A DNA stretch of 44,932 nucleotides from Citrobacter phage phiNP. Positions 26,246 through 44,807 of this stretch are shown in pieces (within the stretch, counting starts at the first letter, position 1; every line of letters begins with the position of its first letter). A model generated the notes under the pieces. That model searched no databases, was not told the DNA's origin, and saw only the letters and a program-made list of their open reading frames with translations. Position numbers and translations under genes: made by a program. The DNA is taken from the sequence record OR565852. The stretch is one strand, 5' to 3'.

Positions 26246-27298
26246 TTATTTTTCTGGTAACGCTCTGATTTCTTCAACGGTCTGGTTAAACCGCTCTGTT
26301 TCCAGCTCGACGCCAATAGCCTTACGGCCTAAATCGATCGCCGCTTTTAACGTGGAACCGGAGCCCATGAAGAAATCAGCTACCACATCCCCGGGTCTGC
26401 TGCTCGCGCTGATGATTTGCTTCAGCATGTCAGCAGGCTTTTCGCAGGGATGTTTGCCGGGATAAAACTGGACGGGTTTATGCGTCCATACGTCGGTATA
26501 TGGCACGGCCACCGACACGGCAAAATACCGCCGAAGGGATTTGTACTCCTCCAGCAGTTCGGAATATTTACGGTTCAGTGACTGGTATGTTGCCACCAGT
26601 TGGTGATGAGGCTGCGCCAGTTCGGCACGCTGATGCTTCTCGATAGCGATCCGGGTGAAAAGCTCCTGCAATTTGAGGTAATCCGCTTCACCCGGCAGCT
26701 GCCACTGGCTGGAACCAAACCAGTGCGAAACCATGTTCTTCTTACCAGTGGCCTCGGTGATTTGTTTCGAGGTAACGCCAAGGGATTCCCGGGCATTCTG
26801 AAAATAGGTAATAAGCGGTGTCAGCACATGCTGTTTGAGTTCACCACATTTTGCCGCGTAACCATCGTCTTTGGGCTTGCATGGCCCCTGATAGTGTTCA
26901 GCAAACAGAACACGCTCAGTGGCCGGGAAATACGCGCGCAGACTTTCTTTATTGCAGCCATTCCAGCGACCGCTCGGTTTAGCCCAAATGATGTGGTTCA
27001 GGATGCTGAAGCGGTCGCGCATTAAGATTTCAATATCTGCAGCCAGCCGGTGGCCGCAAAACAGGTAAAGGCTACCGGCGGGTTTCAACACTCGCCAGAA
27101 TTCAGCCAGGCAGCGATCGAGCCAGCGAAGATAGTCTTCATCCCCTTTCCACTGGTTATCCCATCCGTTTGGCTTCACCTTGAAGTAAGGCGGATCGGTA
27201 ACAATCAGGTCGATGGAGTTATCAGGAAGGGTGGCGATGTAATGCAGGCAGTCAGCGTTGATTAACTCAACACTGTTTATTTTTACAGTATTTTTCAT
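26246..27298 (-). CDS. DNA methyltransferase, beta-class N6-adenine/N4-cytosine family (DPPY … FxGSGS order). It is the first long gene of the late operon.
   Basis: Motif IV LIVTDPPYF lies near the N-terminus and motif I DFFMGSGSTL near the C-terminus. Confidence 0.7.
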   Translation of the reverse strand: MKNTVKINSVELINADCLHYIATLPDNSIDLIVTDPPYFKVKPNGWDNQWKGDEDYLRWLDRCLAEFWRVLKPAGSLYLFCGHRLAADIEILMRDRFSILNHIIWAKPSGRWNGCNKESLRAYFPATERVLFAEHYQGPCKPKDDGYAAKCGELKQHVLTPLITYFQNARESLGVTSKQITEATGKKNMVSHWFGSSQWQLPGEADYLKLQELFTRIAIEKHQRAELAQPHHQLVATYQSLNRKYSELLEEYKSLRRYFAVSVAVPYTDVWTHKPVQFYPGKHPCEKPADMLKQIISASSRPGDVVADFFMGSGSTLKAAIDLGRKAIGVELETERFNQTVEEIRALPEK

Positions 27299-27447
27299 AG
27301 ATCAGTAAGCGGGACTCTGATAGGCTCACTGTGCTTTAGCGCTAAAGCGGTGGGCCTCGGTTCGCTTGTGACCTCAAACATGAGCGAATGGCTGGTGGAG
27401 TGCTCCAACACCCACCAGCCGCCCATTTTCACAGCCAATAGCCACCA

Positions 27448-27636
27448 TTACTGGAGGCGCTTATAACATCCGAATTGATAAAACGAAAACCCCGCCATCA
27501 CTAATTGCGTGAGTATAAATTCACAGCGTGCAAGGCTCAGGTGTGTATTCTCTGCAATTTCCCCAGCGGTCGCTGGCGTTGTACTTAGTTCATTAAGAAT
27601 TGCTTTCGCTTCTTCTGTCATATCTTGCTGATTTAG
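27448..27636 (-). CDS. Small hypothetical protein, the first ORF after the late promoter. The track ORF extends to 27711.
   Basis: A 62-87 aa ORF between the pR'-like promoter/terminator and the MTase gene. Confidence 0.3.
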   Translation of the reverse strand, partial: LNQQDMTEEAKAILNELSTTPATAGEIAENTHLSLARCEFILTQLVMAGFSFYQFGCYKRLQ

Positions 27637-27718
27637 CATGTCTTTTACCTTAAAAAATAGTGTGACATACAGATAACTCTGGTCGCCGACAGCAGCAAGA
27701 AGTCTTTGCAAAAGACAT

Positions 27719-27741
27719 AAAAAAACCCCGCCGAAACGAGG
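27719..27741 (-). terminator. tR'-like intrinsic terminator on the minus strand (5'-CCUCG-UUUCGG-CGGGG-UUUUUUU).
   Basis: A hairpin with one G·U pair followed by a 7-U tract. It lies ~60 nt downstream of a candidate late promoter and just downstream of the Q-position gene, which is the lambdoid pR'-qut-tR' arrangement. Confidence 0.45.
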
Positions 27742-27772
27742 TTAGATACAGTTTTGACAAAATATCAAATTA

Positions 27773-27810
27773 GCCTTAAATATGGCTCATTTTGTTGCAT
27801 TTTGCAAGCG
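27773..27810 (-). promoter_or_regulatory. Candidate late promoter pR' (minus strand: TTGCAA … CATATTT).
   Basis: A -35/-10-like pair is immediately downstream of the Q-position gene and upstream of the short terminated leader. Confidence 0.35.
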
Positions 27811-27837
27811 CGTTAGACGGAGTTAGTGAAATTTAGG

Positions 27838-28533
27838 TCACATTTCCAGCGCATTAGCCACTTCCAGCCCTTCGCGCCTGATGAGGATCGTTTGCAGCGC
27901 CTGAGTGTCAAGCTCGACGAATGCCGCTTTAAATCTCGCCCAGTGCGATGCATACACACGTAACCAGGTTGAACGATCCACAGACATCATTCGCGCCAGC
28001 GCCGCACCGGCGTATTCTTTATATGTGTCATTGCTTCTGGCCGCAGCCACCTCCTGCGCTGCCAGCCAGACAAGACCGACCAGTTTTTTCACTACCCGTG
28101 ATTGCAGCTTCTTCTCTACCCTGCAATTCTGAAACTCATTCCATACATGCTGGCACATCAGCGTCTGGTACCTGAAGTTCAGATCGAAACCGTAGCAGTA
28201 ACGGATCCATGCCTGCTGGTAGTCATCCAGTGAATTGATTACCCGGCGCCACGGCGCGTAACTAAATTCCAGATCCTGCATTGGCGGGAACGGTCGCCGC
28301 CGGCTTCTCGTTTCCAGCACATAAACAGGCGTGGTTAATGCCTTCACAAGCGAGTGTCCACAGCCTTCCCCGCCCTCCAGTTCGATAAGAGGCTGCCCGC
28401 AGCGGGGCGTTTTATTTTTGTCTGCCGGTGGATGTTCGCTAAACGCCTGCAGTTGCCCCTTTGTCCCTTCAGATAAATTCGCCAGGGCGCGCTTTACTTC
28501 TATACGGGTATATTCAATGGCCTGTAAGTTCAT
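27838..28533 (-). CDS. Putative late-gene antiterminator Q.
   Basis: A 231 aa protein at the canonical position, downstream of the nin-like genes and directly upstream of the pR'/tR'-like elements and lysis cassette. Sequence alone is not diagnostic. Confidence 0.5.
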   Translation of the reverse strand: MNLQAIEYTRIEVKRALANLSEGTKGQLQAFSEHPPADKNKTPRCGQPLIELEGGEGCGHSLVKALTTPVYVLETRSRRRPFPPMQDLEFSYAPWRRVINSLDDYQQAWIRYCYGFDLNFRYQTLMCQHVWNEFQNCRVEKKLQSRVVKKLVGLVWLAAQEVAAARSNDTYKEYAGAALARMMSVDRSTWLRVYASHWARFKAAFVELDTQALQTILIRREGLEVANALEM

Positions 28534-28554
28534 TCAGATTAGCGCTCCATACAC

Positions 28555-29646
28555 TTACGCTTTAACAATTACGCCGATCGCCAGCGCCCGATCCAGAAAA
28601 CGAAACAGCAGTTCCAGCTGTGTGCCATATTTCTGCTCGAACGCCGCTACATCGGCATGCAATTTGTCGTGGCACTCTCTGCACAGAGGGAACACGAACA
28701 GGTCATGGGCTTTGGTAGCAGTGCCACCCATCCCATGACCGATAACATGATGCGGATCGTCTGCCGGACGGCGACAACACTCGCAGGGCTGACTTTTAAC
28801 CCAGCGCGTATACTTCTCATTCTCCCAGCGGCGGCGCTTAGGCCGTAACATGAACGACTCCGGTGATTCAGGATCTGCGCTCAATGCAATAACCCTTGGC
28901 TGCTGCTCCTGCATTACCTGCTGATTTTCCTGTGGCCTGCACCTTTTTAACGATCCAGCCGTTTTTATCCTCCTCTGCAGGGCGACGGTTGGTCGGTTAT
29001 CTGCGGCAATAATGTCGCTTTCTTTATATACAGATGGGAACGGTTCATAGGGCATCTGCATCACTCTGGCTGCCAGTTCTTCCGGAATGGCATCTGCCAC
29101 ACCGACATAAATAGCCCACCAGCACAGCTCAGCGATCGACAATTCCCGCTCGCGATTAAACCGAAGGCCGACCAGCACGGTATCAATGATCCAGTCAATA
29201 ACGTTACGGCGCGCTATACCAGCCAACAGATCGGTTGACTGCTCACGAAGTTTGTTATCGCAGTGCCAGCAAAGCATCATCGCGCCCGGGGCGTGTCGCA
29301 TGGTCACCAGCTCATGATGGTGATAATCCGAGTGCGGGTACTGACATTCACCGATATTCCGCTCAAGCCAGTGATCCAGCCCGGAGAGACTACCCGCAGC
29401 ACGGATCACCCTCTCATCAGTGAAGAATGGGATCAGCGCTTCATCCTCCGCCAGCGGCTGCCGGGCATCAGGAACACGGCCGGTTGACAGCCTGGCCATG
29501 TTCTCCGGTTCGGACTCCACCAGCACGCGCCCCGCGGAGAAAAGGCGCATTAACTCTTTGCCCGGTTTGAGCAGTACCACGCCAAGACGTGGCACAACTT
29601 CAGGGGTTAACAGCGCTCTCATGCAACCTCCCGCTGCTGGTTGCAT
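28555..29646 (-). CDS. NinG/DUF968-like protein with a C-terminal HNH/zinc-binding motif.
   Basis: The C-terminus reads …CECCRRPADDPHHVIGHGMGG…CRECHDKLH…. It occupies a nin-region position. Confidence 0.45.
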   Translation of the reverse strand: MQPAAGGCMRALLTPEVVPRLGVVLLKPGKELMRLFSAGRVLVESEPENMARLSTGRVPDARQPLAEDEALIPFFTDERVIRAAGSLSGLDHWLERNIGECQYPHSDYHHHELVTMRHAPGAMMLCWHCDNKLREQSTDLLAGIARRNVIDWIIDTVLVGLRFNRERELSIAELCWWAIYVGVADAIPEELAARVMQMPYEPFPSVYKESDIIAADNRPTVALQRRIKTAGSLKRCRPQENQQVMQEQQPRVIALSADPESPESFMLRPKRRRWENEKYTRWVKSQPCECCRRPADDPHHVIGHGMGGTATKAHDLFVFPLCRECHDKLHADVAAFEQKYGTQLELLFRFLDRALAIGVIVKA

Positions 29647-31379
29647 AACTCGGGCAGGTTGGCTTCTACCAGCGCACGGGCAAACGGGGGCGGAACGGCG
29701 TTACCGCAGCGCGCTACCTGCTTGTCTTTTGCATAGCGCTGGCCGCGATAATCACGATCGATAATGTAACCTTCAGGAAAGCCCTGGGCCTTATACAACT
29801 CATGAGGCTGCAACATGCGCATGCCAATATCGACGATCTGGTAGTCGGCACCATCAACCGTTACCAGGCCGAAGCGATCATTGGTTGTGACGGTTCCCAG
29901 CGGTTCATCCAGCGATACGCCGCTTTTTTCATTTCCGTAGTACTTCATCAGGAAGGCGCGAACCTCTCCGATATGCAGACCGCCGGCGGTCACCGTAGGC
30001 ATGGGCTGATCCACTTTTCGACCGTCTTTGCAGGTACCGCGCAGATGAACCAGGTGTGAGGTCACAACAGCATGGTGATCAGTGGTCGTAACGGTATGCG
30101 CAGGTGCATCCATAGCGGCACCCGGCCCCGTATAATTACCGCCGAAGTGTTTCGCCAGAAAGGTGGTCACCAGCTGCGACTTTCCACCACCGCCAGCGGT
30201 TACTGTTCCATTGGGTTCATCAGCGCCGTGTCCGGTACTGTTACCAAACTGGCGGGCTATCATTGGCGCCACCAGGCAGGCGCGGGACTCTTTTAACACG
30301 GTGTGGGCCGGTTTATTTATCGCCCGCGGCTTCGCCTGATATTCGCTACCACCATTACCGGCGATAAACGGGGTAACGACAGCGTATCCATGGGTTTTGG
30401 TAATAGTCTGCAGCGGACTATCAATGCCCTGCCCACGAAAGCAGTCATATGCCGTGCGGCTGCTGGTGTGATTACACTTCACAATAAACGGTGTCGGGTT
30501 GTTCAGCACAAACCGCTCAATACCACGCGCAATGCGCTTCAGCGTATTTTCCGCCAGCAGCTTTGGGCGCTCAAAAATGCTCTGGCAGGGGATTGACCAG
30601 TCGATACACTCCGCCGCGGTACGCCATGGCGCCAGCCTGCCGCTCTGAACTTCCAGCGATTTAGGATCGCCATGTGTTGGCTCTGGCCAGTGAATTTCCT
30701 CACCATCACAGCGCATGACCATGAAGAATCGCTTGCGGATCGTCGGCGCGCCGAAATCGCAGGCTCGCAGTTCGCGATAATCGATGCCGTAGCCCAGCCC
30801 GTTAATAAGGCGCTGCGCCTGCTCGCTGCCTTTAGGTACAGACAGGAACTCGCACACCTCAGACAGGGCGGGATGATCCGCAGGTATGCCGGTGGATAGC
30901 ATGCCAACAAACGCCGCGAAGGTTTCGCCCGCGCGGGATGGATCCGGGCGCATTTCGTCTGCCAGCAGCGGCCCCCACGTTTTGAACTCCTCCACGTTCT
31001 CCAGCATCATGACACGCGGGCGCTTCGCCAGCGCCCAGCGTACTACTACCCACGCCAGACCGCGAATCTCTTTTTTTACCGGCTTAGCACCCTTCGCCTT
31101 TGAGAAGTGGCGGCAATCAGGGCTAAACCAGGCCAGGCCGACCGGATTACCACCAGTGGCCGCCAGCGGATCAACGTCAAACACGGACTCGCAGTAATGC
31201 AGGGTATCGGGGTGGTTAGTTTTGTGCATAGCGATCGCGTTTTCATCGTGGTTGATGGCAATATCCACGCTGCGCCCGATCGCCAGCTCGATCCCGGTAC
31301 TCGCGCCGCCGCCACCAGCAAAGTTATCAACGATAATTTCACGCATTGACGGCTCCCTGCATGCTGTAGACCAGACCAC
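29619..31379 (-). CDS. C5-cytosine DNA methyltransferase (Dcm-like) with an expanded, repeat-containing variable region. It is probably multispecific.
   Basis: Motif I IVDNFAGGGGAS, motif IV FSPDCRHFS, motif VI MLENV and motif X CGNAVPP are all present. The variable region has about six repeats of the TRD-like element xPxxT(V/I)T(A)xGGG…(L/V)V: DSPLQTITK, NKPAHTVLK, DEPNGTVTAGGGG, DAPAHTVTTT, DQPMPTVTAGG and DEPLGTVTTN. Confidence 0.75.
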   Translation of the reverse strand: MVWSTACREPSMREIIVDNFAGGGGASTGIELAIGRSVDIAINHDENAIAMHKTNHPDTLHYCESVFDVDPLAATGGNPVGLAWFSPDCRHFSKAKGAKPVKKEIRGLAWVVVRWALAKRPRVMMLENVEEFKTWGPLLADEMRPDPSRAGETFAAFVGMLSTGIPADHPALSEVCEFLSVPKGSEQAQRLINGLGYGIDYRELRACDFGAPTIRKRFFMVMRCDGEEIHWPEPTHGDPKSLEVQSGRLAPWRTAAECIDWSIPCQSIFERPKLLAENTLKRIARGIERFVLNNPTPFIVKCNHTSSRTAYDCFRGQGIDSPLQTITKTHGYAVVTPFIAGNGGSEYQAKPRAINKPAHTVLKESRACLVAPMIARQFGNSTGHGADEPNGTVTAGGGGKSQLVTTFLAKHFGGNYTGPGAAMDAPAHTVTTTDHHAVVTSHLVHLRGTCKDGRKVDQPMPTVTAGGLHIGEVRAFLMKYYGNEKSGVSLDEPLGTVTTNDRFGLVTVDGADYQIVDIGMRMLQPHELYKAQGFPEGYIIDRDYRGQRYAKDKQVARCGNAVPPPFARALVEANLPELCNQQREVA

Positions 31380-32220
31380 CAGCCACGGTGATTATTTCGC
31401 TGGTGGGCATACGCTCAAGCCAGAGCTGATTGATGTTCGCCTTCAGCTTGTTCTGCTGGGCCAACTCCAGAGAATCCGCTCCCTCAACCTGATTGAATAC
31501 CAGGCCAACCTCCAGCGGCCAGATACGCGACTCCACTTCTGGCTGTCCCAAGCCAGCAGGCATAACGTCTTCCACCGGGGCTGGCGGCACCACTTTTTCC
31601 GCGGCAAATTGGGCCAGCGACATAAATGCCCGCCCCTTAGCCTCTAGATCACTGCGATGAATGTAGCTGAAACGCTCGCCCCGCCATGTCTTATCGAATA
31701 CCACTATGGCGCCAGCGAAAAATGCGCTGGTAGGCTGCTGTTTCTCGTCTGCCGGGATAAACCATGCAGGCAGGTCGAAGCCAATGCGGCCACGGATGAA
31801 AACAATATGATCAGCATCTTCAGGCCACCATGTTTCACTAGGTGCCGCTTTGATGAGGAACACATAGCGACCGCCCTTCTCACGCATGGCAGAGGCATAG
31901 CTCATGATATGACTCATGCCGGTGATCGCCTGCTTACCGTCGTATTGCGATCGGCTATAGGGCGGATTGCCGAACGCGGCGCCACCGATGGCGATCAGCA
32001 TTTCCGACCAATCCTGTGTCAGAGCGTTATCTTCGGCGGTGTACCAGACCGGGCATTTGGCGTTACTGTCGTCGGCGAACAAATCCAGCATCAGCGGCCC
32101 AAACATCGCATTGATGCCCCAGAACAACAGTTCCGGCGTGCGCCACTGATCGCCAACTTCTTTTAACTCGTGGACTGGCTTGCTACGTAGTTCAGCCAGC
32201 GCCAGGCAGTATTTATTCAT
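31339..32220 (-). CDS. Phage Dam-family (PF05869-like) N6-adenine DNA methyltransferase.
   Basis: …DQWRTPELLFWGINAMFGPLMLDLFADDSNAKCPVWYTAEDNAL…AFGNPPYSR… gives the TP…LF, NAKC and NPPYS signatures. The gene is translationally coupled to the replication gene (ATGA). Confidence 0.7.
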   Translation of the reverse strand: MNKYCLALAELRSKPVHELKEVGDQWRTPELLFWGINAMFGPLMLDLFADDSNAKCPVWYTAEDNALTQDWSEMLIAIGGAAFGNPPYSRSQYDGKQAITGMSHIMSYASAMREKGGRYVFLIKAAPSETWWPEDADHIVFIRGRIGFDLPAWFIPADEKQQPTSAFFAGAIVVFDKTWRGERFSYIHRSDLEAKGRAFMSLAQFAAEKVVPPAPVEDVMPAGLGQPEVESRIWPLEVGLVFNQVEGADSLELAQQNKLKANINQLWLERMPTSEIITVAGGLVYSMQGAVNA

Positions 32221-33089
32221 GAGCGAAATCCCGAGTTTTCTGGTAGTGAATAATCCACATCTTTGAAGGTTGCCCGCGCAGCAGGGCTGTGGTTGTTAAC
32301 CCACTCGCCATTTTTGCGCTCAGGGCGACCAGCCTTGTGCCATTTGTTCGCGGCCTGCAGGTAACCAGGGAATTTCGTTGGGTGAAACAGTGTCGTAGGT
32401 CGAAGGTACTCGGACATTTTAAAATCCTGCCCCCATTTCTCGGTCATGTACTCCACAACCAGAGTGAGTTCGTAGATGGTGAACCCCTCCCCCAGCCGGG
32501 CGCGAATATTCTCCAGCGACGTTTTCCCCACCTGATAACGGGATCCTGTTTTTTGGTTCAGAAAAGTCAGAACCTGTTTAGCCTGATCAGTGATCTCCAC
32601 AGCAGGGGCGGGTTGCGACGCAACCGGACAAGAAGTTTTTTTATCTGATGGATCAGTAGTTGATTTTACTGACGGATCCCCGCCAGATTCTGACGGGTGA
32701 AAACCGCCATTTTTATCAGATTTTGACGCCTCAATTTTTGACGGGTCAGATTTTGATGCGTCAGATTTTGACGGGTCAGAATCTGGCAGGTGAGAGAATG
32801 CCGCCGCCTGGAGTTTCCTCACATTAAGTCGATAAACATTGGATGCATTACGGTTACCCTGGCGGCGAGCGGTACGGGTCAACCACCCTTCAGCTTCCAG
32901 CTTTGCAATAGCCGTTCTGACTGTGCTGGACCCCGCCCCAATCTGGCGAGCGATAGTCTCAATGGACGGCCAGGAAACGCCTTCATCGTTACTGAAGTCT
33001 GCCAGGCGTGCCATGATTGCGACACTGGAAATCTTCATGCCAGCCGCCGCACAGCCATCCCAGACGTATGCAGATAATTTAACGCTCAC
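32217..33089 (-). CDS. Replication initiation protein with an N-terminal winged HTH, a C-terminal conserved phage replication domain and iterons embedded in its coding sequence. The start is GTG.
   Basis: The N-terminus reads …ISSVAIMARLADFSNDEGVSWPSIETIARQIGAGSSTVRTAIAKLEAEGWL…. An internal S/D/K linker (DSDPSKSDASKSDPSKIEASKSD) is encoded by the direct repeats. The arrangement mirrors lambda O with ori-lambda. Confidence 0.6.
   Translation of the reverse strand: MSVKLSAYVWDGCAAAGMKISSVAIMARLADFSNDEGVSWPSIETIARQIGAGSSTVRTAIAKLEAEGWLTRTARRQGNRNASNVYRLNVRKLQAAAFSHLPDSDPSKSDASKSDPSKIEASKSDKNGGFHPSESGGDPSVKSTTDPSDKKTSCPVASQPAPAVEITDQAKQVLTFLNQKTGSRYQVGKTSLENIRARLGEGFTIYELTLVVEYMTEKWGQDFKMSEYLRPTTLFHPTKFPGYLQAANKWHKAGRPERKNGEWVNNHSPAARATFKDVDYSLPENSGFRS
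32683..32795. repeat. Origin iterons: about six direct repeats of the consensus TCAGATTTTGACGGG inside the replication gene.
   Basis: The repeat copies are CCAGATTCTGACGGG, TCAGATTTTGACGCC, TCAATTTTTGACGGG, TCAGATTTTGATGCG, TCAGATTTTGACGGG and TCAGAATCTGGCAGG, at 15-16 bp periodicity. Confidence 0.6.
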
Positions 33090-33265
33090 TTATCTACCCT
33101 CACGAATCTGGAACGAAACACGATCAGCGGTGCCGCACATTCCCAGTCATATCCTGGGCGGCGGTAGATAACACGCTGTCCAGTTGCGTCATAACCGATC
33201 ACATTTACGACAATACCGTGATGATCCCGGTAATATCGGTTCAGAGGTTGAATATGCTCTGTCAC
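33090..33265 (-). CDS. Small hypothetical ORF (58 aa, GTG start) abutting the replication gene start.
   Basis: Hand translation gives VTEHIQPLNRYYRDHHGIVVNVIGYDATGQRVIYRRPGYDWECAAPLIVFRSRFVRVDK. Its stop is adjacent to the GTG start of the replication gene. Confidence 0.2.
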
Positions 33266-33266
33266 G

Positions 33267-34001: not shown

Positions 34002-34149
34002 CCACAGCCCACTCGGTAAAGCTGTGGTTCACGAGTGCCCAGCCGCCGGGTACTCTTACGGCATAGCAATACGTGACATCGCCTTTGCCACCACGAACTG
34101 GCAGCGCGCGAAGTTGCGAACGCTGGCTATTTGCGGTTAAATTGCTCAT
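33952..34149 (-). CDS. Small hypothetical protein (66 aa).
   Basis: ORF coupled to the stop of the upstream gene (ATGA at 34146-34149). Confidence 0.2.
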
Positions 34150-35753: not shown

Positions 35754-35768
35754 CCCCTCTCCAGCAAA

Positions 35769-35794: not shown

Positions 35795-35803
35795 CATACC
35801 CTA

Positions 35804-35859: not shown

Positions 35860-36745
35860 CATTCCATCAACAGCGAACAGGCAGGACGCCCACGAAGTAG
35901 CCGCCCGGGGCATATGAAGGCCGGGATGATTCGCTCAGAACATGGCGAAAGCCGAAAGACTTGAAGGCGGTTTTCTCAGGTTGCGCGCTAAAGCATAGCG
36001 GGGAGAACCTGGGGCGGAGAGCAAACCCCGCGATTCAGGACATGATCGCCTGTGCATACCAATAAGCCGTCTGGCAGCGTAACTGCTCTTTACATTGGCA
36101 CCGGCAAAGTGGCGCCGCTGAACCGAGGCTGGTGGATCGTAAAACCGCAGGAGCAAGCAACAAACGGTAGTCCGTATGGAGAAAAATCCGTTGAGTAAGG
36201 GGCCTGGCCGGAACCGTAACCGGCACACAACGATGAGAGCATTGACGAGCAAGGTTTAATGTCCGGTTCGATTCCAGACACCACGAAGCGGTGGCAATGG
36301 GCAGGGAAAAGGTCCGTTCAATTCGGACACCGGCAGTGCTCTCTTCGTTGTGGAGTATACAAGCGTATTGCAGCGCCGGTCGACGCAAAGACCCGTAAAT
36401 CGACTGAGCCGTAGTTACTGGCGGCCAATACCAAAACAGAGCGGCGGGAAGTAAGTAGGGGTAGCGCCCTGGTGTCACAACCAAATCACGCTTAGGACCG
36501 TGATAACCGTAGTACCAATATTGCTGTGTGTAGTCTTGGCGGTACCAGTTCCATCCCTTGAAGTCCCTGGTACCGCCCTTTTTACACAAGAGACAAGAGC
36601 ATCACCGGGCGACGGGCTCATAACCCAATCCACCCGGGCGTTAAGGAAGTGGTCTTCTCACCCATGACCAGCGCGCAGGTGCTCTTTTCTGTTGTGTATG
36701 GAGAAACTTACGGCGGCGGCAGCCGCTTAACCGAGAGGAAATGCT
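35860..36745 (+). ncRNA. ORF-free ~0.87 kb transcribed leader / candidate structured non-coding RNA downstream of the pL-like promoter.
   Basis: No plus-strand ORF of 60 aa or more is present. Hand-checked ATGs give peptides of 18 aa or fewer. Composition is phage-like. There are many local hairpins, including T-arm-like GTCCG-TTCAATT-CGGAC at ~36313-36329. Confidence 0.3.
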
Positions 36746-37117: not shown

Positions 37118-37173
37118 ACCGCTGACAACTAATTCACTGCCACCAATTCGATCATTTGTTAATAAGGAATTTT

Positions 37174-38001: not shown

Positions 38002-38139
38002 TTGCTCAGCCTTAATTGCCCTGCCCCGCGGGGCAATTAGTGAAGCGTAATTCATTTAAATATCGCCATCTGGCGAGGGATTCGTGCAACCAAAAATCAG
38101 CCGAAGGTGCAGCTGCGAATAAATGGAGAAATAAAACCG

Positions 38140-38682
38140 ATGAGCTACATACAGACATTATCAGGCAAGAAATTCGACTATGTGAATGCCACTGTTGACG
38201 ATATTGAGATCGAAGATATAGCGACCGCGCTTTCCCATATCTGCCGCTTTGCCGGCCACCTGCCGGAGTTCTACTCCGTGGCCCAACACTCAGTTCTGTG
38301 CAGCCAGCTGGTAGAGCCTGAGTTTGCCTTTGAAGCGCTGATGCACGACGCCGCAGAAGCGTATTGTCAGGATATTCCCGCACCGCTTAAAGCCCTGCTG
38401 CCGGACTACCGCCGGATTGAGGCGTTTGTCGACGAACTGATCCGCTTTAAATTCAATCTGCCGCTCACACAGTCTCCTGTAGTGAAATATGCCGATCTGA
38501 CAATGCTGGCTACCGAACGCCGGGATCTGGACATTGACGACGGTACATCGTGGCCCATCCTCGAAGGAATCCCCACCAGCGACCTTATCCAGATCGCTCC
38601 TCTTCGCCCGGGCCAGGCTTACGGACTTTTCATGACCCGCTTTAACGAACTGATGGAGCTGCGCGCATGCAACACCATATGA
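38140..38682 (+). CDS. HD-domain 5'-deoxynucleotidase (YfdR-like).
   Basis: The HD motif is …LSHICRFAGHLPEFYSVAQHS…ALMHDAAEAY…. It sits at the yfdR position. A GGAGA RBS precedes the ATG at 38140. Confidence 0.55.
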   Translation: MSYIQTLSGKKFDYVNATVDDIEIEDIATALSHICRFAGHLPEFYSVAQHSVLCSQLVEPEFAFEALMHDAAEAYCQDIPAPLKALLPDYRRIEAFVDELIRFKFNLPLTQSPVVKYADLTMLATERRDLDIDDGTSWPILEGIPTSDLIQIAPLRPGQAYGLFMTRFNELMELRACNTI

Positions 38683-38867
38683 AAGTAAAAGAACTGGTTG
38701 CCGCGGCACGCATGGCAGCGTCTGACCTTCCACCAGCAGCGGCACAGTTAATGCGTGAAGTCGCCACCAGACTGGATGTGACCTTTGTTGCCCTGAGTGA
38801 AGCTCTGGATCAGCGCGTCACCCTTATGGCAGAGAACGAAATTTTACGCGGGGATAAATCGCAATGA
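38667..38867 (+). CDS. Small hypothetical protein (66 aa).
   Basis: ORF overlapping its neighbours by 16 and 4 nt in the early-left operon. Confidence 0.3.
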   Translation: MQHHMKVKELVAAARMAASDLPPAAAQLMREVATRLDVTFVALSEALDQRVTLMAENEILRGDKSQ

Positions 38868-39190
38868 ACGAACAAACTACAGTTAAACACCTCCATTTCT
38901 ACGGTGCCAGCGATGATCTGCTGGAATGCGAAGGCGCGATCCGCGAGGAGATTGGTTGCTATAACTCTCCAGGCATCTATCACCTCAAATCCGCCGAGGG
39001 TGAAATGCAGGTTGTCGGTTATTACCTCGACTCCGGGCTGTGGAGCATCGGAATCAGCCAGGTCGCCGAAGATACGCCGCTGCCAGCGTGGCCCGTCACT
39101 TACGCCATGCATGAGCGTGGTTACAGTGTCCAGCTCACCATCACTGTGCCGGACGACGCCATTCTGGTTTTGTCAGAGGAAGATGAATGA
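38864..39190 (+). CDS. Hypothetical protein (108 aa), in the yfdT position.
   Basis: Coupled ORF in the early-left operon. Confidence 0.3.
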   Translation: MNEQTTVKHLHFYGASDDLLECEGAIREEIGCYNSPGIYHLKSAEGEMQVVGYYLDSGLWSIGISQVAEDTPLPAWPVTYAMHERGYSVQLTITVPDDAILVLSEEDE

Positions 39191-39918
39191 GCATTACCCT
39201 GCATAACGCCGACTGCTTCGATGTTTTTCCGACGATTGCCAGCGGTTCCGTAGACATGGTGTGTGCGGATATTCCCTACGGTACCACGCAGTGCTGCTGG
39301 GATTCGGTGCTTGACCTCGAGGTGATGTGGCATGAACTGTACCGCATCGCCAAGCCGTCAGCGGCAATTGTCCTGTTTTCGGCTCAACCGTTTACCGCGG
39401 TGCTGGTCGGCAGCAACCTGGCGGACTGGCGATCCGAGTGGATTTGGGAAAAAGGCAACGCCACCGGCTTCCTTAATGCCAAAAAACAGCCGTTGCGTGC
39501 CCATGAAAATATAGAGGTGTTTTATCGTCGCCAGCCGACATACAACCCGCAGTTTACCCATGGTCATGCGCGCAGAACATCGAAGCGCAAAACCGTCAAT
39601 TCGGAGTGCTACGGCAAAGCGCTGACGCTGACTAAGTATGACTCAACCAGCCGGTACCCGCGCGATGTGCAGTTTTTCTCGAGTGACAAGCAAACCGGTA
39701 ATTTCCATCCCACCCAGAAGCCGCTGGCGCTGGTTCAGTACCTGATCGAGACCTACAGCAACCCCGGCGATACGGTGCTGGATTTCACAATGGGAAGCGG
39801 TACCGCAGGAGTCGCCTGCCTGCGTGTCGGGCGCTGCTTTATTGGCATTGAGAAAGACACCTCAATATTTCAGGTCGCGCGTCATCGTATAGGGACTAAG
39901 CAGGAGCATGCAGCATGA
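39187..39918 (+). CDS. DNA methyltransferase, beta-class (DIPY variant of D/NPPY … FxGSGT), probably N6-adenine.
   Basis: Motif IV is …VCADIPYGT… and motif I is …DFTMGSGTAG…. Between them is an ParB-less 243 aa core. The protein is expressed from the early-left operon. Confidence 0.65.
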   Translation: MSITLHNADCFDVFPTIASGSVDMVCADIPYGTTQCCWDSVLDLEVMWHELYRIAKPSAAIVLFSAQPFTAVLVGSNLADWRSEWIWEKGNATGFLNAKKQPLRAHENIEVFYRRQPTYNPQFTHGHARRTSKRKTVNSECYGKALTLTKYDSTSRYPRDVQFFSSDKQTGNFHPTQKPLALVQYLIETYSNPGDTVLDFTMGSGTAGVACLRVGRCFIGIEKDTSIFQVARHRIGTKQEHAA

Positions 39919-40112
39919 AGATCCGCTGTTTTTTCGGGCTTCATAAATGGGTGCTGTTCAAGAAAGAGCTTCACCCATATCAATCTCTTAACGGACTGCA
40001 GCCAACTATTATTTTCCACTATGGGTGTAATGGCTGCGGCAAGACCAGAACAGAGACTCGCGAAGAGGGTTACTGGCATTCTTTTAAACCATCAGATTTG
40101 GAGCACATGTAA
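39915..40112 (+). CDS. Small Cys-containing hypothetical protein (65 aa).
   Basis: …HYGCNGCGK… may be a zinc-ribbon half-site. The ORF is coupled to its neighbours. Confidence 0.25.
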   Translation: MKIRCFFGLHKWVLFKKELHPYQSLNGLQPTIIFHYGCNGCGKTRTETREEGYWHSFKPSDLEHM

Positions 40113-40679
40113 TGAACCACCTTATGATCGACCTAGAAACGATGGGTAATAAGCCTGCTGCGCCAATTGTCGCGATCGGCGCTGTGTTTTTCGACCCGAA
40201 AAGCGGTGAGCTGGGCGCCGAGTTCTATGTGGCCGTCAACCTCGCCAGCGCCATGGATCAGGGTGCTACCCCTGACGGTGACACGATCCTGTGGTGGCTG
40301 AAGCAATCAGCGGAAGCTCGCGCTGCTATTTGTACCGACGACACTAAGAACATCGCCGAAGCGCTCTCCGAGCTTAGGTCATTTATTAGCCGTAACTCTG
40401 ACAAACCGCGTTATCTGAAAGTCTGGGGCAATGGCGCCAATTTCGACAACGTTATTTTGCGTTCAGCCTATGAACGCGCCGGCCAAACCTGCCCGTGGCA
40501 ATTCTGGAACGACAGCGACGTGCAGCACCATGGTGCTGCTCGGCAAACAGCTTGGTTTCGATCCAAAGCGCGATATGCCATTTGATGGTGTAGCCCACAA
40601 CGCACTGGCCGATGCCCACCACCAGGTGAAATATGTATCGGCAATCTGGCAGCGACTATTGCCCGCCAGCGCCGAATAA
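40112..40679 (+). pseudogene. DEDDh-family (DnaQ/RNase T-like) 3'-5' exonuclease gene split by a +1 frame change near 40511-40531.
   Basis: Exo I (MIDLETMG) and Exo II (WGNGANFDNVIL) lie in the frame of ORF 40112..40585. Exo III (…GVAHNALADAHHQV…) lies in the frame of ORF 40431..40679. The two frames share the junction WNDSDVQ/TMVLLGKQ. Confidence 0.55.
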
Positions 40680-40721
40680 TACCCCTAATAGCCCGGGTGC
40701 AGCCGGGCAATGGAGAAATTT

Positions 40722-40928
40722 ATGCTGAGCCTCGATTGTGTTCCCATCTCAACTTATTGCAAAGAGACAGGCGAAACTCCTGATGCGATCAACAAGCGCG
40801 TACAGCGCGGTGTGTGGCGTGAAGGGGTTCAGGTGCTGAAAGTCGAAGGCGTTAAGGAGAGATGGATAGATCTTAGTGAGGTTGCAAAATGGGCCAGACA
40901 GAATCGCCTAAACTCCCGCGCGGCGTAA
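40722..40928 (+). CDS. xis: Excisionase-like protein (Xis).
   Basis: A 68 aa basic protein immediately upstream of and overlapping int. A GGAGA RBS is present. Sequence begins MLSLDCVPISTYCKETGETPDAINKRVQRGVW…. Confidence 0.5.
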   Translation: MLSLDCVPISTYCKETGETPDAINKRVQRGVWREGVQVLKVEGVKERWIDLSEVAKWARQNRLNSRAA

Positions 40929-42055
40929 CCATCAGGAAACATCGCAACGGTCAAACCATCAATATTACTTTTACATATAAAGGGGTGAAATGCCGTGAGC
41001 CTCTTTCTAATCTGGACGTAACCCCTAAAAATATCAAATACGCCGAGCGCACACTCGGCGAAATCCATAACAAGATCGAAAGGGGAACGTTTGTTTACGC
41101 GGAATACTTTCCCCGTTCTACCCGATTAAAAATTTTCGGAAACGCTGCCGCAGGAAAAACGGTGAAGATGTATCTGGATGAGTATCTGGTGATCTGCGAA
41201 ACGAGGAAGCTTTCCCCTTCGACAATAGGCGGGTACAAGAAATGCCGAAGCGCATTGTCATCACTTCATATTTATCCTGCAAGTGAGTTGACGCCGGCTG
41301 CATTGAAGACATGGATCCAGAACCAGAAAACGACATTGAAGACCATCCGAAACCAGTTGTCATTCCTGCGTTCTGCATTGGATGAAGCAGTGACAGATGG
41401 TGTGCTTCAGATTAACCCTGTATCTCTGGTAACAGCCTCACGATACCAAAGTGATAAATCAGAGGCAGAAAGTAGTTATGTGGTTGATCCGCTATCACCA
41501 GCAGAAGTTGATGCTTTGCTCTCTGCTACTGGCAATAAGCAGTGGGAGAATCTTTTCCGGTTCGCGATACAAACAGGGCTGCGTAGTTCCGAATTGTGTG
41601 CTCTTCGTTGGCGTGATATCGACTTTGTAGGGAAGACTGCCCATATCCAGAGCGCCAGTGTTGTTGGTGTGATCAAAGGGACCAAGACAAAAGCAGGTAC
41701 CCGTAAAGTTGAACTCACAGATGAAGCAATGTCGGCTCTGATAAATCAGAAACCGTTCACGTTCATGAAGGGCGCTACTGTCTTTGAGGATCCAAAGACC
41801 AATAAGCCGTGGGCAAGTGCTGATGCAATTAGAAAAAAGGCATGGGTGCCGACATTGCGAAAGGCTGGTATTCGGTACAGAAACCCATATCAGACTAGAC
41901 ATACATTCGCCACATGCCATATCAGCCGGGGAACAAACTTGTTCTGGCTTGCGACTCAAATGGGACATAAAGGCCCAGAGATGCTTTTCCGTCACTACGG
42001 CTCATATCTGAAGGAATATGATGGACAAACAAGCCTGAAGAAGATAAAAATATAA
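40889..42055 (+). CDS. int: Tyrosine integrase (lambda Int family, IntS-like).
   Basis: The catalytic region …RHTFATCHISRGTNLFWLATQMGHKGPEMLFRHYGSY… carries the R…HxxR…Y signature. The gene is transcribed towards attR. Confidence 0.8.
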   Translation: MGQTESPKLPRGVTIRKHRNGQTINITFTYKGVKCREPLSNLDVTPKNIKYAERTLGEIHNKIERGTFVYAEYFPRSTRLKIFGNAAAGKTVKMYLDEYLVICETRKLSPSTIGGYKKCRSALSSLHIYPASELTPAALKTWIQNQKTTLKTIRNQLSFLRSALDEAVTDGVLQINPVSLVTASRYQSDKSEAESSYVVDPLSPAEVDALLSATGNKQWENLFRFAIQTGLRSSELCALRWRDIDFVGKTAHIQSASVVGVIKGTKTKAGTRKVELTDEAMSALINQKPFTFMKGATVFEDPKTNKPWASADAIRKKAWVPTLRKAGIRYRNPYQTRHTFATCHISRGTNLFWLATQMGHKGPEMLFRHYGSYLKEYDGQTSLKKIKI

Positions 42056-42058
42056 TCC

Positions 42059-43846
42059 ATGTCTGAATTATTGGCCGCAATTTGTGGCCATTTCATGGAA
42101 CAAGGTACAAACATGGCAAATCCAATAACCAAACTAAAAAAAATAAACGTTGTAAAATTTCGAGGACTAAAAAATATAAATATAGAATTTGGTTCGCGAC
42201 TAACTGTTATTTGTGGTAAAAACGGCACATCTAAATCGACAATTCTTGGTATTATCGCCCAAATTTTTAGTTTTACAAAAGATCTGTCTAAGAACCCCGA
42301 GGTTGATTTAACACAATATAAGACATTAACTAATGGCACCTTCAAGTCAGCTTTCAGTGAACATTTTAGACTTTCAGAACAATTTGATACTGCAGGTTCA
42401 ATGGAAGTCAGGATTAGTGTTTATGATGGTGCATCTAACAAACATCTTGAAAAGCTAACATTGGGTCTATACAGCTCCAGTGACAGGGATAAATCAAGGC
42501 CAATAGTCAGGGGCAATGATTCCATACCGGGGAAAAACCAAAGTAGAAACGTCACTCATCCAGTTATTTTTCTAAGCTTAGCAAGACTTCTCCCTATTAC
42601 TCTACGGACTGATTACTCAACAAGGGATGTTCAGTATATCAATGAAAACGCAGATGATATAAGAATAATGAGCAATCAACTCTTACTTAAGAATAATGGG
42701 TGCTCAGTAACAGCCACGAAAGGGACGATCGATTCAATGGTCGTACACGGCGATAATTACGACCATCAATCAGTCTCTGTTGGTGAGGATAATGTTGGAC
42801 AATTAATTCAAGCAATATTTTCCTTTAAAAGGCTAAAAGAACTTTATGACGATTATCATGGAGGTATTTTATTAATTGATGAAGCGGACGCAGGTCTTTT
42901 CCCTGCTGCTCAGTTAGAATTAATTGACATTCTAGCTAAAGCAGCTAAAAAATATGACTTGCAAATAATCATGACTTCTCACTCACCATTAATAATAGAA
43001 GATATTTTCAATCGTTCCAAACAAGATGCCAACGGATTTAAAACAATATATCTGACAGATACTTATGGTGATATTAAAACAAAAGACAATCTATCATGGG
43101 CCGATATCAATGCTGATTTGCATGTTGAAACTGTAAAAATAAATGATGAGATTAGCCTTCCAAAAGCCAACGTATATTTTGAAGATAAAGAAGGCTTCGA
43201 TTTTTTCAAACAATTGATAATTGATAGAAGAATAAACAGAATATTGAATCCATTAGGAAACATAAATATTAGTTGTACTGCTATCCTAGATTTAATGGCT
43301 AGAAAAGTCCCTGAGTTTACTAACAAAAGCCTAGTTGTCTTAGACGGTGATGTTGCTCTCGATAACAGTGACAATGCTAAAAAAGCGAAAAAAGAGAGAA
43401 GCTTATGCTTGCTTCCAGGCATTCTTCCCCCAGATCAAATGATTTTTGAATTCTTATATAACTTACCTCCAGACGATATATATTGGAACAATAAAAATAG
43501 ATTTACAAAAGCAGTATTTATGAAAATAACAAAAGACATAATTACAACATTAAAAATAAGTAACTATCCTATTGATTTACTAAATTCTATAGAGAATTAT
43601 AAAAAATCAAACAAAAACCATGGCGGAGTGGTTAGAAAACTATTTAAAGATTTTGTCCATACGCCTGAGTTCCTAGCACAAGTAAAAGGGCGAGTTAAAG
43701 ATAATCCTTATCGATATTGGGTCGAGAAACACCCCGTAGAATCCGATAATTTCAAGCATGAATTAATCAAAAACCTTAAAATTATTATGACAAATGGACA
43801 TGGCGTTGACTCTGCTACCATCACTTCGTATCTGTCTGGCAACTAA
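42059..43846 (+). CDS. OLD-family ABC-type ATPase with a C-terminal TOPRIM-like nuclease domain (putative anti-phage or abortive-infection nuclease) in an AT-rich cargo cassette.
   Basis: Walker A is …TVICGKNGTSKSTILGII… and Walker B is …GGILLIDEADAGLF…. The ABC H-loop is …MTSHSPLII…. The C-terminal half carries …VYFEDKEGFDF… and …LVVLDGDVALDNSD…, which fit the Toprim Glu and DxD elements. The ATG lies 3 nt after the int stop. The gene is markedly AT-rich. Confidence 0.5.
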   Translation: MSELLAAICGHFMEQGTNMANPITKLKKINVVKFRGLKNINIEFGSRLTVICGKNGTSKSTILGIIAQIFSFTKDLSKNPEVDLTQYKTLTNGTFKSAFSEHFRLSEQFDTAGSMEVRISVYDGASNKHLEKLTLGLYSSSDRDKSRPIVRGNDSIPGKNQSRNVTHPVIFLSLARLLPITLRTDYSTRDVQYINENADDIRIMSNQLLLKNNGCSVTATKGTIDSMVVHGDNYDHQSVSVGEDNVGQLIQAIFSFKRLKELYDDYHGGILLIDEADAGLFPAAQLELIDILAKAAKKYDLQIIMTSHSPLIIEDIFNRSKQDANGFKTIYLTDTYGDIKTKDNLSWADINADLHVETVKINDEISLPKANVYFEDKEGFDFFKQLIIDRRINRILNPLGNINISCTAILDLMARKVPEFTNKSLVVLDGDVALDNSDNAKKAKKERSLCLLPGILPPDQMIFEFLYNLPPDDIYWNNKNRFTKAVFMKITKDIITTLKISNYPIDLLNSIENYKKSNKNHGGVVRKLFKDFVHTPEFLAQVKGRVKDNPYRYWVEKHPVESDNFKHELIKNLKIIMTNGHGVDSATITSYLSGN

Positions 43847-43857
43847 TTGATTGAAAA

Positions 43858-43892
43858 GGGCTTTATATGATGGCCATAAAGCCCTTTTTTTG
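43858..43892 (+). terminator. Intrinsic terminator (AAAGGGCTTTAT…ATAAAGCCCTTTTTTT).
   Basis: A long stem followed by a T7 tract, directly after the OLD-like gene. Confidence 0.55.
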
Positions 43893-43925
43893 ATATACTT
43901 TAGACTTGACATTTAGAGGTATCAT

Positions 43926-44807
43926 ATGCGTTTTAACACCCCACTTCGTTATCCTGGCGGCAAAGGCAAGCTTTCTAATTTCATGCTTCGGATTATTGAA
44001 GATAATAAGCTTTCGCCTATACATTATGCAGAGCCATATGCTGGGGGTGCTGGTTTAGCGCTGAAGCTGTTACACTTAAATGTAGCTGAAAAAATCATTC
44101 TTAATGATATTAATATCTCAGTTTATGCTTTTTGGCACAGTGTATTAAATAATGCAGATCATTTATGTGCTTTAATTGAGGATACTGAAGTCACAATGGA
44201 TGAGTGGTTCAAACAGAAAGAAATAATTAATCATCCAAGAGACCATGATATGCTAACAATTGGTTTTTCTACCTTTTTTCTTAATAGAACAAATCGTTCT
44301 GGAATATTAAAAGGCGGTGTAATTGGTGGTAAAAATCAAGAAGGGCAATGGAAACTTGATGCTCGTTATAACAAGAGCGATTTAATTTCTCGGATTCAGA
44401 AAATATCAAAAAACCGTGAAAGAATAGATTTGTATAACATGGATGCAATTGATTTCATAAAAAAAATAGTTGTTCAATTGCCTAAAAAATCATTAACATA
44501 TTTAGATCCGCCATATTATATAAAAGGTAAGGGATTATATATCAATCATTATGAACATAGTGACCATGTTAATGTTGCAAAAGTAGTGCAGCATGATATT
44601 AAAACACCGTGGATTGTTTCTTACGATAACACTCCTGAGATCCAAGGTATGTATAAGGCATCATCATTAGTGTATGGAATAAACTACAGTGCTCAAGATC
44701 GATATAAGGGCTCAGAAGTGATGTTCTTCAGTAAACGATTGAAAGTCTTTAAAACCGATGATCCAACTAAGGTAAAAGCACCTACCAATAAAAATGCTAT
44801 GAGCTAG
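43926..44807 (+). CDS. Dam-like (D12 class, alpha) N6-adenine DNA methyltransferase in an AT-rich cargo cassette.
   Basis: …LRYPGGKGKL… matches the Dam KWAGGK motif. Motif I is …AEPYAGGAGL… and motif IV is …YLDPPYY…. A TTGACA -35 element lies upstream at 43906. Confidence 0.7.
   Translation: MRFNTPLRYPGGKGKLSNFMLRIIEDNKLSPIHYAEPYAGGAGLALKLLHLNVAEKIILNDINISVYAFWHSVLNNADHLCALIEDTEVTMDEWFKQKEIINHPRDHDMLTIGFSTFFLNRTNRSGILKGGVIGGKNQEGQWKLDARYNKSDLISRIQKISKNRERIDLYNMDAIDFIKKIVVQLPKKSLTYLDPPYYIKGKGLYINHYEHSDHVNVAKVVQHDIKTPWIVSYDNTPEIQGMYKASSLVYGINYSAQDRYKGSEVMFFSKRLKVFKTDDPTKVKAPTNKNAMS

Follow-up and report, generated by a model that had tools for sequence, protein, structure and literature searches.

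Five DNA methyltransferase genes of the Citrobacter rodentium prophage ΦNP: candidate modules for virion protection and lysogen defence

Introduction

Why would one temperate phage carry five DNA methyltransferase (MTase) genes, and does any of the five partner a nuclease? Both questions are raised by ΦNP, a prophage of Citrobacter rodentium ICC168 (sequence record OR565852), whose 44,932 bases from attL to attR are the stretch of DNA analysed here and are referred to as the window. An initial annotation, made from the sequence of the window, had described the five genes (here M1 to M5, in order of position) and had read them as a single heavy investment in anti-restriction functions. Our analysis divides them. 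We consider it probable that ΦNP is a mosaic temperate phage with three methylation modules that serve two purposes, self-protection of the virion and defence of the lysogen. The MTase that partners a putative nuclease appears to be M5, which stands beside a gene for an ATPase similar to the OLD family; the Toprim-like chemistry of that ATPase is predicted from its model.

ΦNP is an active temperate myovirus that is integrated at ssrA and released spontaneously from C. rodentium at 1e5 to 1e7 plaque-forming units (pfu) per ml. Strains of E. coli K-12, MG1655 among them, support both its plaques and its lysogeny, and RNA-seq of cultures gave signal from all 65 ΦNP coding sequences (PMC3072379). 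Two papers on C. rodentium prophages make no mention of methyltransferases (PMC6456863; PMC3072379). To call the window a 45 kb prophage is exact, since the published length of 44,907 bp (PMC6456863) and one 25-bp att copy add up to 44,932, and the att repeats stand at both ends (Table 1). A protein identical to M5 is encoded at 2,774,330-2,775,211 of the C. rodentium ICC168 chromosome (FN543502.1), where insertion sequence (IS) elements and lifA adjoin.

Results

The five methyltransferase genes

All five MTase open reading frames (ORFs) lie where they had first been placed, and they score far above the Pfam gathering thresholds for four families: PF01555 twice (M1 and M4), PF00145 (M2), PF05869 (M3) and PF02086 (M5). 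NCBIfam, PADLOC and PHROGs agree with these calls. The initial annotation had named missing catalytic motifs as the result that would count against it; motifs are present in all five proteins, and the odd motifs of M2 and M4 prove to be family traits and not signs of decay. A motif scan of all ORFs in the window revealed no sixth MTase; Pfam was applied to about 30 of the roughly 60 genes, so that for the structural genes this negative depends on the motif scan. Gene order and junctions also bear out the distribution of the five over the early-right (M3, M2), early-left (M4), late (M1) and att-proximal cargo (M5) regions.

Table 1. Features of the ΦNP window discussed in the text
Feature	Position	Strand	Remarks
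M1, beta-class N6-adenine MTase, M.EcoGII ortholog	26246..27298	-	PF01555 1.4e-42; DPPY35, FMGSG310
M2, C5-cytosine MTase, 575 aa from corrected ATG, SPDC motif IV	29619..31346	-	PF00145 2.7e-20
M2 variable region, putative target-recognition domain (TRD) array, six tandem 32-37 aa units with P-x-x-T-[VI]-[TL] core	29838..30467	-	residues 294-503
M3, phage N6-adenine MTase	31339..32220	-	PF05869 1.1e-43; TIGR01712; NPPY85
M4, small beta-class amino-MTase, 243 aa, DIPY	39187..39918	+	PF01555 5.1e-27; DIPY28, TMGSG
M5, alpha-class (D12) N6-adenine MTase, PD-λ-5_B type	43926..44807	+	PF02086 1.1e-17; DPPY194, YAGGAG; 34% GC
OLD-family-like ABC ATPase, predicted Toprim-like C-terminal domain, 577 aa	42113..43846	+	AAA_15 1.5e-16, AAA_21 2e-12; 34% GC
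14-bp-stem hairpin then T-run between ATPase gene and M5	43853..43889	+	-16.3 kcal/mol, z -4.05 vs shuffles
DUF968/HNH-like nin-region gene	28555..29622	-	PF06147 1.7e-71
Replication-initiation-type gene (helix-turn-helix (HTH) + Phg_2220_C)	32217..33089	-	PF09524 6.4e-22, PF13730 8e-11
Antiterminator Q	27838..28533	-	PF06323 6.9e-35
tR'-like intrinsic-terminator hairpin between Q and late genes	27724..27743	-	8-bp stem then TTTTTAT; consensus match
Integrase	40889..42055	+	PF12167 8.8e-24, PF00589 1.7e-15
attL copy, 25-bp ssrA 3'-end core (GGTTCAACTCCCGCCAGCTCCACCA)	1..25	+	exact direct repeat of 44908-44932
attR copy of 25-bp core (GGTTCAACTCCCGCCAGCTCCACCA)	44908..44932	+	exact direct repeat of 1-25

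M3 and M2 form a replication-coupled module

The replication-type gene, M3, M2 and the DUF968/HNH-like gene form a chain on the minus strand, in which the stop codon of each gene overlaps the start codon of the next. The coupling of M3 to the replication gene, proposed earlier, takes the form of an ATGA overlap, and the chain extends on to M2, where the end of M3 and the start of M2 overlap as ATG..TGA. Of the span first given to M2 (29619-31379) the end stands and the start does not: the homologs all begin M-x-EIIVDNFAGGGG, and an ATG at 31346, preceded by a GGGAG Shine-Dalgarno sequence, replaces the GTG at 31379. The DUF968/HNH ORF had been listed from 29646; an ATG at 29622, which overlaps the M2 stop as ATGA, is the likelier start.

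The association of these genes was examined in 80 IMG/VR loci around M2 homologs, searched with all five proteins; many of the contigs are short, and the counts are lower bounds. At least 65 of the 80 loci have an M3 homolog immediately upstream of M2, at least 32 have an M1 homolog downstream of it, and at least 28 have all three. M3-M2, often accompanied by M1, is thus a stock lambdoid module, and much of the apparent MTase investment is inherited as a block. Two genes were considered as nuclease partners of M2 or M4 and rejected: the DUF968/HNH gene, because an E. coli M10 prophage has DUF968 without M2 or M3, and an Rv2179c-like exonuclease, because it is present in related prophages that lack those MTases.

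M3 scored 201.9 bits against TIGR01712, for which the equivalog cut-off is 97.05, and about 95 of its 293 residues form a C-terminal extension. Relatives of M3 occur in 282 phage records, 11 of which cover at least 80% of the protein; a solved relative of M3 was looked for and not found. In many relatives (Flotzy, 38618-39952, and Chi-like Salmonella phages) the M3-type Dam domain is part of a longer protein annotated as a phosphoadenosine phosphosulfate (PAPS) reductase, phrog_33262. The PF05869 enzymes of phages T1, HP1 and VT2 are said to be specific for GATC, a point on which nothing here relies. M.EcoGIX was dropped as a related prophage enzyme, since it is borne on a plasmid (PMC7736820).

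The repeat array of M2

The catalytic core of M2 is that of a C5-MTase. Motifs I (FAGGGG), IV (SPDC), VI (ENV), VIII (TIRKRFF) and X (GNAVPPP) are invariant or nearly so among the 120 homologs listed, 119 of which have SPDC, and its Cys aligns with that of PPCQ in the solved structure 3g7u. At E<=1e-10 the homolog search returned at least 8000 candidates. Homologs measure 507-728 aa, and an alignment of members of different length showed that this variation consists wholly of the presence or absence of discrete blocks, each with a P-x-x-T-[VIL]-T core, between unchanged catalytic halves. In ΦNP the variable region holds six such units, whose mutual similarity exceeds that of shuffled controls with a z of about 20. 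The units of 118 close homologs fall into 14 types, and their collinear arrangements, of 4-10 units each, number 29. Bacillus phage SPβ provides an external comparison: its enzyme M.SPBetaI has two units, 'SPTLTTMGGGH' and 'EPAFTVNTIDRHGV', which resemble 'PNGTVTAGGGGK' and 'PLGTVTTNDRFGLV' of M2. With motif IX in register, the second unit aligns to M2 at 36% over 45 aa (E 0.002); when both units are aligned, the E value is 0.94. We take M.SPBetaI to recognise two target sequences, which would match its two units.

Could the array instead be one repeat-built DNA-binding domain, in an enzyme that is monospecific or relaxed in specificity? The ΦNP units are far more alike than independent TRDs require, and at 32-37 aa they are shorter than the TRDs of the Bacillus-phage enzymes, which measure about 38-45 aa. 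A profile of the 14 unit types found chance matches alone among PDB sequences and no solved C5-MTase TRD. Structure prediction was of no use here: the AlphaFold2 (AF2) model of M2 reached a predicted local distance difference test score (pLDDT) of 37.6 and was discarded, its low quality arising because all the homologs available are at least 57% identical to M2. Yet whole units are gained and lost in fixed order while the catalytic halves stay unchanged, a pattern that a repeat-built domain would tolerate less easily, and the same core recurs in both units of M.SPBetaI, which is a genuinely multispecific enzyme. A single-domain array seems to us the less likely reading, though a serious one. 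We retain the view that M2 carries a putative multi-TRD array, as the sequence comparisons support, in which each unit may confer a separate target, and to that extent the label 'multi-TRD' in the initial annotation was well chosen. A 2025 review treats multi-TRD arrays, together with M.EcoGII, as devices by which temperate phages counter restriction at the time of exit, and credits the arrays to Bacillus phages only (PMC12707154).

M1 is an ortholog of M.EcoGII at the head of the late genes

M1 shares 78% identity and 89% similarity with M.EcoGII over 348 aa (350 against 349 aa); the M.EcoGII sequence was taken from Table S1 of PMC11551740 by machine reading of the PDF, and a few residues may be wrong. 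Its motifs follow the beta-class order, with an N-terminal DPPY, a central TRD and a C-terminal FxGxG. M.EcoGII methylates adenine whatever the surrounding sequence; its lysogen does not express it, and constitutive expression is harmful (PMC5778455). An MTase of the near-identical M.EcoGI type is not transcribed in E. coli ST131 (PMC4659465). Orthologs of M1 are found in about 95 deposited phages, including SfV, cdtI, mEp460, φP27 and Stx2c phages.

The genes around M1 suggest when it is made. Reading along the minus strand, Q is followed by a terminator-like hairpin, a small winged-helix ORF, M1 and the lysis genes (including a DUF2514 Rz-like gene), which agrees with the assignment of M1 to the late region. 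The same order of Q, MTase and holin, with an M1 ortholog, recurs in the E. coli M10 prophage and in phage Flotzy. By analogy with the pR'/tR' layout of lambda, the hairpin would act as a tR'-like terminator, and M1 would be expressed late and in dependence on Q. Methylation throughout the life cycle, which the spread of the five genes had been taken to provide, is unlikely for M1 as an ortholog of M.EcoGII. The small ORF at the head of the late transcript (27448-27711, minus strand, 87 aa) has a DprA_WH match at 1.2e-4, below threshold.

M4 is a DIPY enzyme of the early-left operon

M4 overlaps both of its neighbours by ATGA, which places it within the early-left operon as first described. 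Its DIPY aligns with the DPPY of solved beta-class MTases (HpyAVI), the first Pro being replaced by Ile. Because D[I/L/V]PY is kept in 78 of 80 M4 homologs, the motif is to be read as a family trait, which argues for function, and the Asp in D-I-P-Y suggests adenine over N4-cytosine as the target. The family extends over 387 phage records, from phages of many phyla, with one enterobacterial relative above 70% identity, in phage JL22.

No M4 homolog occurs in the 80 IMG/VR loci around M2. Conversely, 17 of 80 loci around M4 homologs also hold an M2-type gene, in many cases directly downstream of M4 (for example loci L104:10001-12900; L095, L102-L108, L141, L143, L145), so the adenine MTase that accompanies the C5-MTase varies from phage to phage.

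How unusual the combination is

An MTase is found in 34% of gut phages, and 72% of those have just one (PMC10477858). Five is thus an unusually high count, as had been supposed, and so is the set: among 50,697 deposited phages no record has close relatives of all five, judged from the matches listed. The best match to M5 in that collection is only 50% identical and non-enterobacterial, and the close relatives of M4 do not overlap with the M1 matches listed, from which it follows that no deposited phage has the ΦNP set. The nearest relatives carry two or three (M1, M2 and M3 in Flotzy; M1 and M5 in the E. coli M10 prophage). ΦNP is accordingly a rare combination of known modules.

Such a combination might have arisen by chance, as modules hitch-hiking through lambdoid recombination with no combined function, some of them (M2 and M4, for instance) perhaps inactive or redundant. 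Each module is common singly, to judge from the phage records and homologs counted above (95 for M1, 282 for M3, 387 for M4 and at least 8000 homologs for M2). The M1, M2 and M3 trio is passed on as a block, and M4 and M5 were not together elsewhere in the loci sampled, with no M5 homolog in the 80 M4 loci. The cassette that holds M5 has a GC content of 34%, against 53% for the prophage overall, a sign of separate and recent acquisition, and given the vast number of prophages rare combinations are to be expected. A purely accidental assembly nevertheless accounts poorly for five intact reading frames with family-conserved catalytic motifs. Four of the genes share overlapping codons with their neighbours in essential operons, which argues for expression, and the frameshifted M5 copies of Symbiopectobacterium (described below) show that unused copies decay, whereas that of ΦNP is intact. 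We judge an assembly without function unlikely.

M5 is paired with an OLD-like ATPase

Between int and attR, and thus att-proximal as first reported, M5 is preceded by the gene for a 577-aa ABC ATPase (an alternative start is possible at 42059). A promoter scan of this AT-rich cassette gave about as many matches as chance predicts (15, with 12.1 expected). M5 itself matches the PADLOC model PD-Lambda-5_B at 2.8e-123 over residues 1-283 of 293. The name refers to PD-λ-5, a validated defence system from an ECOR7 prophage that consists of a ParB/HEPN protein and a methyltransferase, has been described as a compact combination of restriction-modification and abortive infection (RM+Abi) and could be cloned only in a Δmrr host (PMC9519451).

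The upstream gene had been placed in an 'OLD cassette'. Sequence models lend that label no support. The Walker A (GKNGTSKS) and Walker B (LIDEAD) motifs of the ATPase are invariant; its best PADLOC matches are the PtuA, AriA and GajA ATPases, PD-Lambda-5_A is absent from its top PADLOC matches, and its C-terminal 266 aa matched nothing in Pfam or PADLOC. Comparison of folds does support the label. The AF2 model, built with 33 homologs, has a pLDDT of 87.9 and a beta-alpha-beta domain at residues 352-433, and within the C-terminal domain E357/D358 and D411-x-D413 are invariant. Searched against the PDB, the model came closest to GajA, the effector of retron-Eco8 and the OLD nuclease of Thermus (E 1e-11 to 1e-12). 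We accept the protein as a member of the OLD family at the level of its predicted fold, and Toprim chemistry would be consistent with the same model.

The pairing of M5 with its upstream neighbour is on firmer ground. Across 22 loci from many phyla, the same-strand gene upstream of the M5 homolog is either an ORF of 450-500 aa, which was PD-Lambda-5_A in 6 of 6 cases tested, or an ATPase of 563-595 aa (3 loci). Of 5426 E. coli genomes, 85 have an intact pair of the ΦNP type. It is maintained beside a different integrase in Citrobacter sp. Cpo102, beside cI in P. aeruginosa prophages and between Q and holin in Y. enterocolitica prophages. One of the Y. enterocolitica prophages with the pair (L194:1-8731, L195) carries in addition a homolog of Mom (PF25680) and a C5-MTase of 686 aa, and so is another prophage in which DNA-modification genes are stacked. 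In Enterovibrio norvegicus (L196:3501-7709) the ATPase gene adjoins a convergent 506-aa ORF and a D12 MTase, apparently a full PD-λ-5 A+B pair; judging from this locus, the ATPase could have been added as an extra effector and need not be a strict replacement. Symbiopectobacterium sp. RP has five M5 copies of about 95% identity (L166, L168-L171). Four of these are frameshifted, three of the four being accompanied by ATPase sequence that is itself frameshifted or a short remnant, a sign that the module is decaying in the genome of this symbiont.

Is M5 then a true orphan that happens to lie beside a stand-alone Class 1 OLD abortive-infection protein? Stand-alone genes do occur among the published OLD classes, in which MTase partners are absent (PMC10568477). 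The two ΦNP genes are separated by a T-run hairpin that may serve as a terminator or attenuator, and they may not be co-transcribed. A prophage D12 MTase of E. coli ST131, which need not be a relative of M5, was judged an inactive orphan (PMC4659465). Adjacency without meaning is nonetheless hard to reconcile with a pair that has stayed together across four genera and four kinds of insertion site, its proteins 51-98% identical, with an M5 family otherwise tied to the PD-λ-5_A effector, and with the Enterovibrio ATPase beside an apparent full A+B pair, and we hold it to be improbable. By its gene neighbourhoods M5 is not an orphan, being consistently paired with a predicted effector gene. M5 is better described as the predicted modification component of a conserved defence module of two genes, with a probable role in defence of the lysogen and not in escape of the phage, and it is on this point that the interpretation of all five genes as one anti-restriction investment needs revision.

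Other features of the prophage and its host

A separate low-GC cargo also occupies the left arm beside attL (241-1835). It comprises DinI (241-540), a HicB-like antitoxin (846-1256) and a hexapeptide-repeat acetyltransferase (1281-1835), and a small ORF ahead of the HicB-like gene (643-822) could be HicA. Just past the lysis genes, at 21858-23785 on the minus strand, three successive ORFs of 234, 221 and 206 aa gave no significant Pfam match and a sub-threshold MptE-like match alone; in phage Flotzy a serine-threonine kinase gene directly follows the lysis genes. The ΦNP cargo with the highest RNA-seq expression, ROD_26221-26241 (PMC3072379), seemingly lies beside cI (~35900-36700) and away from the MTases, a placement estimated from gene numbering. 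In the same neighbourhood a 184-aa ORF (36035-36589, minus strand) has no Pfam match. Outside ΦNP, the RNA-seq supplement for C. rodentium lists two genes as 'putative prophage DNA adenine methylase' (dam), ROD_02631 and ROD_09331, the latter among CRP99 genes, so the prophage-borne MTase load of the host reaches beyond ΦNP.

Discussion

A model with two purposes

The activities, specificities, timing and self/non-self logic that follow are what we infer from the identities, motifs, order and junctions of the genes and from their co-occurrence and pairing. M3, acting on N6 of adenine, and M2, acting on C5 of cytosine through six TRD-like units, would be made from the early-right transcript, and since both are coupled to the replication gene they could act while phage DNA is copied. 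M4, probably also an N6-adenine enzyme, would be expressed from the early-left operon. M1, which probably methylates adenine in nearly any context, would be made only after Q-dependent antitermination, shortly before lysis and packaging, and this timing would limit its toxicity. Through M1 to M4 the virion DNA would acquire broad N6-methyladenine (m6A) and several patterns of 5-methylcytosine (m5C), and would be protected from many restriction systems of Types I, II and III in the next host. In the int-attR cassette, M5 would mark host and prophage DNA as self, and the OLD-family effector would act on unmarked incoming DNA or trigger abortive infection, in the manner of PD-λ-5 with a swapped effector.

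Several results weigh against this model, beyond the unit profile and the discarded structure of M2 and the hairpin upstream of M5 already described. M2 has Asp before the catalytic Cys, where nearly all C5-MTases have Pro, and no documented activity of an SPDC-type C5-MTase family was found in the literature searchable. For the ATPase, a profile of its alignment matched PDB sequences over the ATPase motifs alone and not over the C-terminal domain, and the Toprim assignment draws on fold and on an E...DxD pattern, with TM (template modelling) scores of about 0.3 in the PDB matches. Because the ATPase is not PD-λ-5_A, the validated phenotype of PD-λ-5 would not be simply transferable to the ΦNP cassette. 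M3 and M4 look redundant if M1 hits nearly every adenine; differences in timing or in completeness of methylation are the explanation we offer. Finally, ΦNP plaques on MG1655 (PMC3072379), which is Mrr+ McrBC+, although dense m6A and m5C should draw Mrr and McrBC; partial methylation or a reduced efficiency of plating may explain this.

M3, M4 or both might instead be chiefly regulators of replication, packaging or lysis-lysogeny, as Dam is at P1 pac, and not anti-restriction enzymes. In favour of this, M3 is coupled to the replication gene, Dam methylation is required for P1 packaging (PMC12707154), and a phage Dam with GATC specificity would bring little extra protection in C. rodentium, where every GATC site examined is already methylated (PMC12805903). 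Against it, M3 stands nearly always with the C5-MTase M2, which fits a protection module better, and a regulatory role strikes us as very improbable.

Two gene families in ΦNP, the SPDC C5-MTases that shuffle their units and the OLD-MTase pair, appear to be under-described. For the two jointly we put forward a proposal that is tentative and could well prove wrong, namely that both are widespread variants not yet described. The ATPase-Toprim-like protein and the PD-λ-5_B-type MTase would form a distinct, methylation-gated OLD defence system outside Classes 1-4, one that moves as a two-gene unit from prophage to prophage in Citrobacter, Escherichia, Yersinia and Pseudomonas, at cargo sites beside an integrase gene, a repressor gene or Q. 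The SPDC-type C5-MTases (at least 8000 homologs, Enterobacterales) would be the Gram-negative counterpart of the multispecific Bacillus MTases and would diversify their targets by shuffling 4-10 TRD units.

If the two-purpose model is correct, one 45-kb genome unites adenine methylation without sequence specificity, a cytosine MTase with several targets and an OLD-type defence linked to methylation. ΦNP would then be a compact model for stacked restriction evasion by temperate phages, for the tolerance of heavily methylated DNA in hosts with Mrr and McrBC, and for the arming of lysogens by prophages; its spontaneous release and its growth on E. coli K-12 make it tractable. Should the model fail, ΦNP would be no more than a mosaic prophage that is unusually rich in such genes. 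Work on attaching-and-effacing pathogens has its standard mouse model in C. rodentium, and methylation by prophage enzymes could influence how efficiently this species is transformed and how CRISPR tools and phage therapy experiments perform in it. GATC methylation is already reported to block SaCas9 at certain protospacer-adjacent motifs (PAMs) in C. rodentium, in a paper that covers host Dam only (PMC12805903).

Comparison with known systems

Like PD-λ-5, the ΦNP cassette has two genes, is borne on a prophage and has its MTase downstream, and M5 matches the B component over its full length. The upstream A component of PD-λ-5 is a ParB/HEPN protein, whereas ΦNP has the ABC ATPase with its Toprim-like domain, so the cassette is not strictly PD-λ-5. 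The OLD family (P2 Old, Thermus OLD, GajA and the retron-Eco8 effector) provides the best structural matches of this ATPase, which is prophage-encoded as P2 Old is; in the ΦNP protein sequence models detect no Toprim domain. In Gabija, a Class 2 OLD system, the UvrD-like helicase GajB adjoins, whereas the neighbours of the ΦNP ATPase are the integrase and the D12 MTase, and no GajB helicase, retron or AriB occurs near it. OLD Classes 1-4 as published include no MTase gene context (PMC10568477).

M3 resembles the TIGR01712/PF05869 family in its score (202 bits) and its NPPY motif and differs from it by the C-terminal extension of about 95 aa. The Bacillus-phage enzymes M.SPBetaI, M.SPRI, M.Phi3TI and M.H2I are, like M2, phage C5-MTases with tandem units between motifs VIII and IX and a T-[LV] core. 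Both groups are early genes of temperate phages (PMC12707154). Their overall similarity is marginal (E 0.001-0.002), and M2 differs in having six units (4-10 in its relatives) that are shorter and more alike than those of the Bacillus enzymes, SPDC in place of PC-x, and hosts among the Enterobacterales.

For M1 the closest characterized enzymes are M.EcoGII and M.EcoGI, which it matches in full-length sequence, in beta-class order (DPPY, helical TRD, FxGxG), in size and in prophage setting (PMC5778455; PMC11551740). Those two come from cryptic prophages of E. coli O104:H4, whereas M1 belongs to a demonstrably active Citrobacter phage, and its non-specificity is predicted. A functional analogue is Mom of phage Mu, which is unrelated to M1 in chemistry and protein family and yet is late, silent in the lysogen, toxic if mis-expressed and broadly anti-restriction (PMC12707154), the very role that we propose for M1.

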